DNA of 63,005 bases, filler included, from Octopus bimaculoides (taxonomy: Eukaryota): NCBI RefSeq assembly GCF_001194135.2. It is 3 parts of 2 records of this genome, joined end to end, with 100 filler letters (N's around TTAATTAATTAA, not from the genome) between each part and the next. Parts side by side here need not be neighbours in the genome. Positions count along the whole stretch, not along the records: positions 1 to 31,643 come from NC_068988.1; positions 31,744 to 57,959 come from NC_068988.1; 1 more part is not named here. One strand, written 5' to 3'. Of this stretch, positions 1,346-34,620 are shown piece by piece. The translations under genes were made by a program, and so were the position numbers. Position 1 is the first letter of the stretch. The number at the start of each line of letters is the position of its first letter. The notes under the pieces were generated by a model. The model was not told the DNA's origin and did no database searches. It was given only the letters and a program-made list of their open reading frames with translations.

Positions 1346-1575
1346 GGTAACAGAAGCACTCTACCCCCTCTAGGCTTCCACTCGATATTTAAGGAAAACT
1401 ATTTCCAGTACAGAAGTGATGTTTATTTCCACCTAAACACAGGTGTTCTATAAGAACAGACAATACTGCTATTTTAACCCCAGGAGGACGCTTCCTTCAG
1501 CTGGTTATCCCGTGTGCTTTGCACTCAATATATATTGCAAGCGGAGAGAGAACTCCCTCCTATTCTTGATTGGAA

Positions 1576-1624
1576 TCACTAAATCACATTATTTTGACCT
1601 CATTTTGGTCATCCTCAGTGATGA
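1576..1624 (-). ncRNA. Degenerate type I hammerhead ribozyme
   Basis: Minus strand: tcatca-CTGAGGA-T-GACC-aaaatga-GGTC-AAAA-TAATGTGA-TT-tagtga. GAAA is mutated to AAAA and stems I and III carry mismatches. Confidence 0.55.
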
Positions 1625-1761
1625 ATATACTGCTTTCATCTCCAATAGAGATTTTCTTAATGAACTAGTTTGCTAGTTGCAAAACCAGTGGCTGTGTGAC
1701 ACTGTTTTTTCTATTTATTGCAAGTTAGGATAAGCTGCTGCTGTGTTTAGTAGATGAGTAT

Positions 1762-1810
1762 CCATCACTGAGGATGACCAAAATGTGGTCGAAATCACAT
1801 GACCTGGTGG
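1762..1810 (+). ncRNA. Type I minimal hammerhead ribozyme, one core substitution
   Basis: ccatca-CTGAGGA-T-GACC-aaaatgt-GGTC-GAAA-TCACATGA-CC-tggtgg. Stem I ccatca/tggtgg, stem II GACC/GGTC, near-palindromic stem III; U16.1 is replaced by C. Confidence 0.7.
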
Positions 1811-1874
1811 TCTCCAAGTTAGAATAGCATGGAGTTTACTCATCTAGGCTAACACTCCTTCTTATTAATTGAAC

Positions 1875-3020
1875 TGCAACCATTTCTGTAACTTTTATGG
1901 CCTGATCCAGTAATTTAATACTTCTGTAATTACTTCTGTCTAAGGTATCACCTTTCCCTTAGTAGAAGTTGATGGGTATGATCCTTCCCTAGACAACCTT
2001 GACAACCTAATAAACCTGGGTAACTAGGCCATATCCCACTCCATTAGATATTTTAAGTATCTCAGCAATAATTCTTGATGGGCCAGGGGCTTTCTCAATT
2101 TTTATATCCTTAATTTCTTTATCTATCATGCTGTTGTCAGCTTGGATAAATGGTCCCTCTGTTGGGTCCACATTAGGTAGCCTCTCCTCTATGCATTCTT
2201 CACATTTAACAGCCTTTGGTAGTGATGTTTCCATGCCTCTTTCTTTGTTGAATTATTAAGTGAAAGGGAACACTCATCCACGCAAACACACTTCTCTCCT
2301 ACAACATCACTGTTTTCTCTGACATTATCTTGCAATCAGAACACTCCATACCTCTGGTTCTCACCCACAGAACATTGGTAAATTTCTTCCTTTCAGTTTC
2401 TCCCCTAGTTAAATATACCTGTCGCCTAGCTTTTCTTCTATCCACCTTGTTTAGTTCTCCACTACCCCAACACTATCAGTCCTTCCAGGCTTGTTACCCT
2501 GGCCTGGTTGGGGCTTCACATCAGTGACAGATTAGGTCTGTGGCTCTAAGTTAGTTAGTTGTCCCATAATAACTTACAATTGTCTCCTATGTTACATGTC
2601 TGTAACTCCTCCTCCTTCCGGTCAAATGCTTCAATTTGGCTATTTGAATGTCTCTAAATCTCTGACTATTCAAAAGATCCTTTCCATTCCAGTCTCGTTT
2701 ACTTCATGAAATCCTCCTGGTCCAAATTCTGAAGTCACTGATAACTAACCTATGTTGAGGAGTATGCACTTCACCTGGGAGCATGCACTTCTCCCACTTT
2801 CTAGTAAGAATGACCACCAGATCGATAGGTAACAAGCTGGTGTCTTGAAGCTGCTGTTGGAGATCATCAGGTTATTTGCATCATAGAACTCTAGTAGCCT
2901 AGTTCCCTCCTCATTACAAGAACCAGAGAAGTGTCCCTTTCTAGTGGTCACAGCTTTGTAGTCTCCATTCCAGCTGTCAATTAGTGGCTCGCATTGTCTC
3001 TGGCTTTGCCACATCTGCTT
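1875..3020 (-). mobile_element. RTE LINE fragment (AP-endonuclease C-terminus to RT N-terminus), decayed
   Basis: ORF 2745-3014 (CNEEGTRLLEFYDANNLMISNSSFK) and ORF 2007-2234 (LPNVDPTEGP..KAPGPS.IIAEILK) match the RTE at 3300-6530. Confidence 0.85.
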
Positions 3021-3299
3021 TAGCTAGGGAATAGGGCAGCTATAGTGTTTTGCCGTTCACGGTGCACCCTCCCATCTCACACCTGCCACCGATACTGGAA
3101 GTCTTTCTCCTGAGCACCTCTAATCGTTAACTATACATAAAGCTTTCCCCCTCTCTTCCCAATCCATCCCTGTCTAGTGTCTATCTCCCATTGAATGTAG
3201 TGATTATGAAGTAAATATAATGATGGTATACAGGTTGAAGCCTATTTGTTTACAAGATCTGCCAAATGCACATGCGAGCTTTCTTTTCAGTTACATAAT

Positions 3300-31643: not shown

Positions 31644-31743
31644 NNNNNNNNNNNNNNNNNNNNNNNNNNNNNNNNNNNNNNNNNNNNTTAATTAATTAAN
31701 NNNNNNNNNNNNNNNNNNNNNNNNNNNNNNNNNNNNNNNNNNN
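31644..31743. other. Artificial scaffold linker 44N-TTAATTAATTAA-44N
   Basis: Exactly 100 bp with a palindromic six-frame-stop core; identical structure at 57960-58059. Confidence 0.93.
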
Positions 31744-32214
31744 GAGATAACTCGAATGTGGAATCTAAAAACAGAAACAATTCCTATCATAGTAGGTGCC
31801 TTAGGTATAATAAAAAAATATTCAGACAAATACATAACAAAAACACCAGGACTTACAAATATATATAACATACAGAAAATTGCACTACTGGGTACTGCAC
31901 ACATTCTACGCAAAACACTTTCAATACAGTAAACATAAGAGCACCACAGCAAACCACAGCACATACCCAAGGCGCACAGAGCTGCGCTCGGTAGTGAAGT
32001 GAAAGCACATTATAAAAATAAAACTACTGAATAATAATAATAATAATAATAATAATACAGAAAATAGCACTACTTGGCACTGCACACATCCTATGTAAAA
32101 CACTTTTAATACAGTCAAAATAAGATCATCACAACAAATCACAGCACATATCCAAGGCACACAGAGCTGCGCTCGGTAGTGAAGTGAAAACATGTTATAA
32201 AAGTTAGACTACTG
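31744..32214 (+). mobile_element. R4/Dong-like non-LTR element 3' end with (TAA)n tail and a tandem partial copy (32058-32214)
   Basis: EITRMWNLKTETIPIIVGALGIIKK...IQKIALLGTAHILRKTLSIQ* is an RLE C-terminus; 3' UTR ends ctactg(aat)n. Confidence 0.85.
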
Positions 32215-32379
32215 AATAAGCAAAAAAAAAGTGGTATGAACATAAACCCATATGCATCATCGAAAATGAAAATGCAAAGATCCTATGAGATTTTATGATT
32301 TAGTGGAAACATGAGATAGAGAATAGGAAGCTGGACATAGTCTTAATTGAGAAAGAAAGCAAGAACTGTATTTTCATTG

Positions 32380-32945
32380 TTTCCTCTACTGTTGTTTTCC
32401 AATACCCATCTTTTGATAACTTTGAACTCTACTTCTGTGAACCAGCGATTTTTCTTATTGCTCCAGCTTGATCACACAGTCTCTGTTCTGTGAGTTGAAA
32501 CAATCCTCTCCATTGATCATACATACGTTTTTGGTATCCCCCAAGATGAACACCATTTTCGTCTATGGGGTTGCTCAGGCAGTAACACTCCATGACCACA
32601 GCATTGATTTGTTTGTTCTATCTACGCTGTGTGTGCTGGTCCCTTGCTGGATAAGGACAGGCTGGAGTCGGACCAGAATCTCTGAGCCTACCAGGGGCAA
32701 CACTGTCACTATTAAGGGCTTCAGTTTCATTCCCACCATTATTCACAATATCTTGTTTTTTCATTGTCATTCATATGAGGTAGCAATTATCAGGTTGCGC
32801 AATTACCAGTGTTTTTATTGTGACGCCATCACTAGATGTATCATCAGTGGGAGCATAGGGAGATTCCAACTGGTTCCTTTCATTATTATTATTAACATCA
32901 CTGATATTATTCTTTTCATTTTCTTTTCTACTATTTGTCATTGTT
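32380..32945 (-). mobile_element. R4/Dong-like ORF N-terminal fragment
   Basis: INAVVMECYCLSNP...GYQKRMYDQW...TEQRLCDQAGAIRK resembles the R4-clade N-terminal motif. Confidence 0.65.
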
Positions 32946-34349
32946 AATATTTCCTCTGATCTGACATGAGTTTCAGCTAAATTATCATCATCATCATCAT
33001 CATCATCATCATCATCATCATCATCATCATCATCATTATTATTTTATTTTGTTATATTTTACCATCCCTATTTGTCAAATCACCATTTATTTTACATTGC
33101 AAATCTTAAGTTAGTATTCTTGAATTTGATGTTGTTGCTATGGTGATTTTCTTAAATTTGTTTCTTTTTGTAATATACAATTTACCAGATGTATTCTGGT
33201 TCAAGAATACGAACTCCATATACATCCCTGTATGTCACTGGAAATGATTGATAGGGTGAGTGACATGGAGTGTATTCAACCGTAAAACACTCCCTTAGAA
33301 GAAAAAAGCAAGAAACATCCAACCCATGCCAGCTACAAAAACTGGATGTAAAGCACATGATGATGATGATGCTTGTTTATCAATTTTGGATAGGTTTGCT
33401 TCAGCGATTCTATAACGTAGATAACTGGTCACTGATGGAATGAAACATCCAATTGGAGTTTATAGCTAGTATGATACCCTCTTACTACCCACAGTAAGGA
33501 TTTTGTTTAGAGATATTCAGATGTTATTCTGAGCCTGTCCACTTAATTCTGGTTTATGTTACATCACAATTTATTGCCAATGGATCTGAGATAATGCATC
33601 TCAAGCAAGCTGGCTTTTATATTTTCCCAGTGAAACTAAAAGTCAAGATTATAAATATGATATTTATGACAAATATTAAACTACAAACATGAACTTTGAC
33701 AAAAGATATTGGACAGAAAATCAGCTTTGCTTTCACTTATAAATAAGAACAGTGTTAATTTTTAATGAGAATTTATTCAATGTCTCACTTTGGACAAAAA
33801 TGTCTTTGATAGAAATGTAAACATATTTATAAGTTAACTCAGTTAGTTGTAAATGAAAGAACATTATATATCATATACATATAGTTATATGTGTGTGTGT
33901 GTGTGTGTGTGTGTGTGTGCGTGTGTGTGTGTGTGCACACAAGCTATGCAACAGATATACAAAAAAGCAAAATTAACTAATTCTCCAAAGACTGTAAAAG
34001 ATACCAAACAGCCTTAATTGATTCCTGGCCCTTATTGGGTTCTCATCAAAAGTGTCTTGACCAATCCCAGAAACATGATCAGCCAGTCTGTTTGTGTACT
34101 CAGCAAACCCAGTAGCTACAGAGAACTGGAAGGTCTAATTCGTATACTACCAGTGTTTAACATTTTATCTAATACCAATGGCCCACCAACGACTGTCTCA
34201 GCACACTGAATATTAAGCTCTTATATGCAGTAGATATGTTAACAGGGAAAATTTAATCATTTCTCTTCAACTAAATATTTATAAGCTATATAGCAAGTTA
34301 TAAAATCTCAAGAAGAGATAGAGCAATAATGTATACTAAACTTGCTACT

Positions 34350-34620
34350 CTGCTTGTTGCAAATCAGTTACCAACGGTCACTTTGTTTATAATATATCGC
34401 TGCGAGAAGTGGATCTAAGCTATCATTCCATTGTGCAGATGAACACAGCCGATGAAGAGCCAACTAGCTTGAAACTGGGCCAGTCCTGCGATTCTGCTCG
34501 CTGGTGGGATTTAGTAAGGGTCCGCTCTCCCTGCTAGTGATATATTGCATATAAAGTATGGAGCTCATTGCATCAAAGACCAGCTGGTGGAAAATCTGTC
34601 TGGGGTTAAACTTCTACTGG
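34350..34620 (+). mobile_element. Hammerhead-bearing repeat, copy 3
   Basis: gttgcaaa.cag upstream (also at about 1675), hammerhead 34444-34490, ctctcc..gc...atatattg, and motif CCAGCTGGTGGAAAATCTGTCTGGGGTTAAA at 34580-34610. Confidence 0.65.
34444..34490 (+). ncRNA. Degenerate type I hammerhead ribozyme
   Basis: cacag-CCGATGA-A-GAGC-caacta-GCTT-GAAA-CTGG-G-CCAG-TC-ctgcg. U4 is changed to C; the T before GAAA fits CpG decay. Confidence 0.65.

Follow-up and report, generated by a model that had tools for sequence, protein, structure and literature searches.

A probable non-LTR retrozyme family with a conserved 3' box in the genome of Octopus bimaculoides

Among the non-long terminal repeat (non-LTR) retrozymes of metazoans, those of mussels are 350–390 bp long, and circles have been shown for the retrozymes of coral, mussel and axolotl (Cervera & de la Pena 2020, PMC7229834). 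Metazoan retrozymes are stated to lack a conserved motif that would point to a partner (PMC7761336), and for animal retrozymes both partner and template are still hypotheses in print. Inverted 5' copies, head-to-tail units and microsatellite targets are marks of Penelope-type mobilisation (PMC8557442). A Penelope-like reverse transcriptase (RT)-endonuclease has been shown to nick at ATT, to accept uncut RNA as a substrate, and to start reverse transcription within its own RNA, at a stem-loop that lies 3' of the hammerhead (PMC11167929). In cephalopods, 235 Rfam hammerhead matches were reported, unanalysed, for the giant squid (PMC6962438), and ribozymes are not mentioned in the accessible part of PMC8967140. 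Here we describe hammerhead-bearing repeats in a 63,005-nt stretch of the Octopus bimaculoides genome (assembly GCF_001194135.2; three genomic parts joined by filler), hereafter the window; its DNA is of animal type, AT-rich (36% GC) and rich in microsatellites.

We consider it probable that the hammerhead loci of the window are dispersed, partly decayed subfamily copies of a non-LTR retrozyme, which a Penelope-like RT-endonuclease would copy in trans. The family resembles metazoan non-LTR retrozymes in its 351-nt non-coding unit, self-paired fold, dispersed monomers and head-to-tail junctions, and several hallmarks of such retrozymes were found: a type I hammerhead, a head-to-tail arrangement of ~150–450 bp (for the copy L2, described below, only), non-coding sequence with less than 50% GC, and high copy number. 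It differs from them in having a sequence box kept across 62%-identical subfamilies and a majority core with C at position U4 (U4C). With the hammerheads of Penelope pseudo-LTRs (pLTRs) it shares inverted 5' copies, microsatellite targets, a fixed downstream 3' end and copies spanning the uncut site; unlike them, it has no coding frame, a 4-bp helix II and 167 nt after the cleavage site. An earlier note on this DNA had left open whether such an element was already described in cephalopods. The kind is known, molluscs included (PMC7229834), and the present family is a further member, in a cephalopod genome; no description of a cephalopod retrozyme was found in the literature, subscription papers, Repbase and two supplements lying outside the search. 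The new points are the box 57–58 nt from the 3' end, the U4C majority core, and a single-copy module at 34736–34825.

A core scan of the window placed hammerhead layouts at cores 1768(+), 11196(+) and 34449(+), with a fourth at 1618(−). The earlier note had counted three loci, and the layout is indeed present at all three places, but the first of them proved to be an inverted pair, L1a and L1b, which brings the copies to four. The hammerhead then quoted for this locus, with stem III TCACATGA, is that of L1b, a copy that lacks the box; the box and hairpins of the locus lie in L1a. L2 (11063–11395, +) represents 333 nt of the 351-nt unit, with its core at 11196–11202, GAAA at 11217–11220, nucleotide 17 at 11228, an extended stem I rod at ~11147–11270, hairpin A at 11284–11299, the box at 11306–11337 and hairpins at 11354–11365 and 11368–11383. 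It lies in a microsatellite, its unit end (11395) is at an assembly gap, and at its 5' end a perfect palindrome of 50 bp (11040–11089, 25-bp arms) adjoins (TA)n.

L1a (1416–1697, −, 5' limit approximate) is a decayed type I hammerhead copy with core 1618–1612, A at G12 and nucleotide 17 at 1582, followed by hairpin A (1514–1524), the box (1473–1504), hairpins at 1444–1458 and 1430–1445, and a 3' end at ~1416. Its inverted partner L1b (1703–1838, +; core 1768–1774, C at U16.1, nucleotide 17 at 1804) stands head to head with it (1551–1627 versus 1836–1759, 79% in the self-comparison; 96 of 136 aligned positions identical). The 3' part of L1b is lost, a repeat resembling a long interspersed nuclear element (LINE) begins at ~1839, and the remainder was not found past this interruption by window self-comparison. 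The stem III loops of L1a, 1583–1590(−), and L1b, 1797–1802(+), differ by two changes, as from the decay of one CpG, which suggests from the letters of both loops that the two arms aged from a perfect palindrome. L3 (34370–34660, limits approximate, +) carries a hammerhead with C at U4 (core 34449–34455, nucleotide 17 at 34485), an extended rod at ~34380–34560, the box at 34580–34610 and a hairpin at 34635–34657. Pairwise identity between L1a, L2 and L3 is 62–63% over ~205–210 aligned positions (z 9.3, 3.6 and 3.2 relative to shuffles), and they are therefore treated as separate subfamilies. Their upstream and tail segments showed no mutual similarity, and the junction motif of L2 had no convincing match at L1 or L3.

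The L2 stretch was present, whole or in part, in 20 of the 24 listed public runs. Four runs, among them DNA run X2 and RNA runs X22 and X23, were mapped to 11041–11395 at 85% likeness. X22 showed, in 74 reads (46 starts), a joint from 11395 to 11063 with 18 intervening letters, which defines the 351-nt unit; X23 had it in 57 reads (40 starts), and organism B in a single contig. In X2 the joint row had a depth of 0, but the same junction letters occurred in one spanning contig (depth 65.5) and also in loose ends of 36 contigs; hence tandem units exist as DNA. The family is abundant, with 8436 contigs of X2 aligning to 355 bases, although depth is not copy number. Many of its copies share a common 3' end near 11395, and loose ends behind 11385 continue into (TAA)n in 81 and in 122 reads. 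The unit has 43.5% GC and no long reading frame, and 150 Hydra-type proteins matched the window only at 26419–28713 and 17126–17520 and at none of the copies, in keeping with the earlier statement that no open reading frame is attached. The family was also found in the RNA libraries, where it accounted for 901 reads out of 12.9 million in one and 851 out of 12.0 million in the other (~70 per million). The previous description of a structured, retrozyme-like non-coding element of a few hundred nucleotides is borne out by the 351-nt unit, the head-to-tail junction in DNA and RNA, and the extended rod. On the proposed check of whether copies are tandem or sit as pLTRs upstream of a reading frame, the L2 subfamily turned out to be head to tail, but no copy in the window is tandem.

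The box, CCAGCTG..GGA..CTGGGGYTAAA, had three matches in the window, at 1473–1504(−), 11306–11337(+) and 34580–34610(+), against a mean of 0.00 in 100 window shuffles. Between nucleotide 17 and the box lie 77 nt (L1a), 77 nt (L2) and 94 nt (L3), which agrees with the spacing of 78, 78 and 95 nt given previously. The 3' end falls 57 nt (L1a) and 58 nt (L2) past the box, in two copies that are 62% identical. By its position and conservation the box is a candidate RT recognition site, and it is of some interest because of the reported lack of a partner-pointing motif in metazoan retrozymes (PMC7761336). Because the box keeps its distance from a fixed 3' end in diverged subfamilies, the partner hypothesis can be tested: an autonomous element should end in the same box, and the box should direct RT initiation. 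The pattern had no match in viral contigs. Metagenome contigs gave four matches, none of them preceded within 200 nt by a hammerhead core, and these were attributed to chance. In the Naiad, Chlamys and Hydra consensus files of PMC8557442, where line breaks could conceal a match, the second half of the box had none. A covariance model built from the four copies recovered significantly only its own four inputs, the next match having an E-value of 0.36.

Evidence for structure outside the core came from pairing between the 80 nt before the core and the 80 nt after the cleavage site, which reached −57.3 kcal/mol in L2 (z −7.4) and −57.7 kcal/mol in L3 (z −6.0), whereas cross pairings between the flanks of the two copies gave only −29.5 and −30.8 kcal/mol. 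Since pairing within a copy far exceeds cross pairing, the stem I rod has been kept with different sequences in L2 and L3. The fold of the whole L2 unit had a z of −6.6. In a table made by hand, hairpin A, a bulged box hairpin and two 3' hairpins were found in both L1a and L2, so the two downstream hairpins noted before are present; in L3 the box hairpin includes three G-U pairs, and there is a single 3' hairpin, unlike those of the other two. Sequence variants of the L2 subfamily were counted among the 40 of 113 variants listed. In the core region, all 11 transitions at paired sites keep the pair, one of them only with a partner variant, against 58% expected (p ~0.002–0.004), and 13 variants fall at unpaired sites. 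The copy-specific complementarity of the rod and the pair-preserving variants point to selection on RNA structure, and structure outside the core is, on this comparative evidence, supported by a copy-specific rod in two subfamilies together with these variants.

Differences between RNA and L2 were also inspected over 11041–11395. A>G differences were seen at 23 (X22) and 27 (X23) places versus 10 in DNA contigs; for X22, X23 and DNA, respectively, G>A differences numbered 13, 13 and 8, and T>C differences 15, 14 and 8. Adenosine-to-inosine editing of the rod is possible, but diverged copies could explain the A>G differences.

The hammerhead itself has been preserved unevenly. The earlier note had the core kept at all loci, yet only L2 among the four window copies combines the consensus core with three stems; position G12 is A in L1a and position U16.1 is C in L1b, while in L3 position U4 is C and position 11.1 is U. 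That the sequences of stem II and stem III differ among the cores at 1768(+), 11196(+) and 34449(+) was confirmed, and stem III, described as palindromic, is imperfectly so in these copies. Within the L2 subfamily, stem III alternates between U-A and C-G at 15.2–16.2, and helix II of L2 has 4 bp with a canonical-type loop. Rfam gave no match on the window at the gathering score. L3 weakly matched Hammerhead_HH9 (20.1 bits, E 0.026, cut-off 52), and L2 and L1 matched no Rfam hammerhead up to E 10; for the whole window at E 10, simple-repeat miRNA-type matches stood among the 150 of 225 matches listed.

Several observations weigh against the retrozyme reading. C at U4 is the majority state in the L2 subfamily (1.08 of 1.51 million summed DNA depth, ~71%) and recurs in 125/163 and 99/129 RNA reads; this change reportedly weakens activity in vitro considerably, yet permits viroid infectivity (PMC3088659). 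Enforcing the hammerhead costs L2 10.6 kcal/mol over its free minimum. Neither L1a nor L1b has a significant rod, whole-region folds reach only z −1.7 (L3) and −1.6 (L1a), four core-region transversions break pairs, and the variant counts cover 40 of 113 variants. Tandem evidence covers the L2 subfamily only, and none of the window copies is itself a tandem. The left arm of the L2 palindrome had zero depth in all four mapped runs, which may reflect a private arm, mirroring onto the right arm, or an artefact of assembly. In RNA, reads were equal in both directions, 70% continued into unlike sequence, and neither a pile of read ends nor a dip in depth marked 11228/9; the back-joint seen in RNA also exists in DNA. 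This pattern suits passive transcription of a high-copy repeat and amounts to presence in RNA libraries. Lastly, no autonomous element carrying the box was found by the window search or in the published consensus files of Penelope-like elements (PLEs).

If the family is mobilised as we propose, tandem copies would be transcribed, and neighbouring hammerheads, whose stem III is weak and nearly palindromic, would self-cleave chiefly in dimeric form. Such dimer cleavage, described in PMC4209133, would be the likely route: stem III of L2 as drawn cannot close (2-nt loop), and the enforced fold is costly. The product would be a 351-nt monomer, a permuted form of the genomic unit, which could be ligated into a circle. 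A Penelope-type protein would recognise the box together with the 3' hairpins and nick DNA at AT-rich or microsatellite sites, and reverse transcription would begin at a fixed point 57–58 nt beyond the box. Copying would continue across an intact cleavage site, on an uncut multimer or a religated circle, leaving copies that are 5'-truncated, inverted or longer than a unit. The template would be continuous at the cleavage site, since genomic copies end 167 nt past it and extend 5' through it; circles would not be required, because the Penelope-like RT uses uncut RNA (PMC11167929). We infer Penelope-type mobilisation by analogy, from the inverted 5' copies, the microsatellite targets and the internal 3' end; its marks are the inverted pair L1a/L1b, the (TA)n flank of L2 and the (TAA)n flank of copies in the reads.

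An unlikely, but still the strongest, alternative is that the copies, L1 and L3 especially, are 5'-truncated pLTR remnants of autonomous Penelope-like families, the tandems being secondary satellites. Most PLE hammerheads are indeed solo or inverted motifs 100–700 bp apart (PMC4209133), the junction evidence covers the L2 subfamily and not L1 or L3, and Xenopus retrozymes are sister to pLTRs (bioRxiv 10.64898/2026.07.22.740005), which implies that retrozymes and pLTRs grade into each other. Such an origin fits poorly with the sequence upstream of the L2 unit start, which is the 3' end of a previous unit, and with helix II, which has 4 bp and a canonical-type loop instead of the 7–8 bp of the minimal PLE form. 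In addition, none of the four copies lies near a Hydra-type protein match, the search having covered that clade and not the other PLE clades, and the published consensus files for Naiad, Chlamys and Hydra gave 0 matches to the box.

That a LINE moves a retrozyme resembling a short interspersed nuclear element (SINE), the (TAA)n being a genuine tail, appears improbable. The common 3' end followed by (TAA)n and the plentiful LINE-like RT fragments of the window would suit it, but self-comparison detected no 3' sequence common to the family and the LINE-like repeats of the window, and both the inverted 5' copies and the head-to-tail arrangement are typical of Penelope-type mobilisation. More improbable still is a family that now spreads as DNA, by satellite turnover, with the ribozyme a dead relic. 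It would account for the core changes in three of the four window copies and for the lack of any sign of cleavage in RNA reads; against it, the copy-specific rod and pair-preserving variants imply selection on RNA structure, and the fixed 3' end suits reverse transcription.

A Penelope-like RT-endonuclease frame, broken into pieces, was found at 26419–28719 (+). It starts with RWK and holds DKT, which are Hydra-clade marks (PMC8557442, section 11), and it has 2729 relatives at E 0.001 or better. This element had been put forward as the mobiliser of the hammerhead loci, a role that its broken state and its lack of a shared ribozyme or box do not favour; its flank contains no family copy, no hammerhead model or motif match and no box. 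In the supplement of PMC8557442, the Hydra-1_Obim consensus carries another hammerhead shortly before its end and lacks the box. The AT-rich 3' flank of the window element holds a 150-nt direct repeat (28923–29072 and 29451–29607, 76%) with no recognisable hammerhead. At 17126–17520 (+) lies a second, short Penelope-like protein remnant, matched by 13 of 150 relatives (best E 3.5e-10). Pfam returned nothing for three PLE frames, nor did a word-based search of the endonuclease part. A different, minimal hammerhead at 42760–42815 (−; core 42803) has a long stem II, an intact A15.1 partner and T after GAAA; it is of the type described for Penelope pLTRs and has neither rod nor box. A possible decayed minimal hammerhead, with A at G12, lies at 47512–47560 (+; core 47525).

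Non-circularly permuted hammerheads of type SGC have been found only outside the genomes of known organisms (Eckert et al. 2023, PMC10085705), and no later paper using the term was found in the literature. At 34736–34825 (+), 126 nt past the L3 box, the window contains a module with the same order of segments (U16.1 at 34777, predicted cut after 34778, GAAA at 34793–34796, core at 34813–34819); the predicted cut lies 293 nt past that of L3. The module resembles type SGC as described there, in its S-G-C order, its full set of core nucleotides and the 2–4 nt linker joining the strands of stem I and stem II; here the core is intact, stems I and III are present and the S-G linker is short. Stem I has 6 bp, stem III has 4 bp with a 7-bp extension, and stem II is weak. 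A scan of the window for six orders gave the module as the single SGC match and recovered L2 as CGS. SGC matches occurred in 19 of 3206 window shuffles, six with a short linker; because the thresholds were post hoc and three unusual orders were tried, the real chance rate would be no better than a few per cent. Within the 90 nt, 29 pairs lie in perfect helices of at least 5 bp, versus 11.9 ± 4.9 in shuffles (0/1000, with bounds set post hoc), a level reached by 1 of 1001 real windows. Almost all bases of the module belong to a perfect helix or occupy a hammerhead core position.

The SGC reading is opposed by stem II, which has −3.5 kcal/mol versus −12.5 for a rival partner at 34756–34761, and by an 8-bp helix able to hide the cleavage block; the 7 bp by which stem III is extended also seem geometrically at odds with the active fold. 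No extra helix between stems I and II was present among helices of 6 bp or more. The module had no second copy in the window and no match in viral contigs, and one prokaryotic match lacked the core block. By its sequence it would be a structured RNA of uncertain kind, with an SGC-type ribozyme a possible but doubtful identity; if it cleaves, rewired hammerheads would cease to be confined to metatranscriptomic RNAs. We hold equally tentatively the wider proposal that 34370–34890 carries a type I hammerhead together with a type-SGC or junction-variant one, and that the box fixes the RT start of the partner. If true, this would be the first non-circularly permuted hammerhead in an animal genome, and the box would be a handle on the machinery that moves animal retrozymes. 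A circle with two ribozymes is unsupported, as the 293-nt stretch between the predicted cuts folds like shuffles when circular (z 0.02). A heptamer resembling a second core at ~34731 and a GAAA-capped hairpin at 34742–34755 could make a four-way junction in place of stem II.

Other repeats were also seen in the window. One LINE-like family, putatively of RTE type, is represented by fragments at 1839–2925, 4257–6112, 21248–23340 and 58288–58831, in both orientations, with an RVT_1 match at 58346–58732. Inverted repeats of 460 bp (43307–43768 and 45606–46071, 85%), ~1.8 kb apart, look like the ends of a DNA transposon, and further inverted repeats lie at 12300–12600/12732–13013 and 54847–55162.

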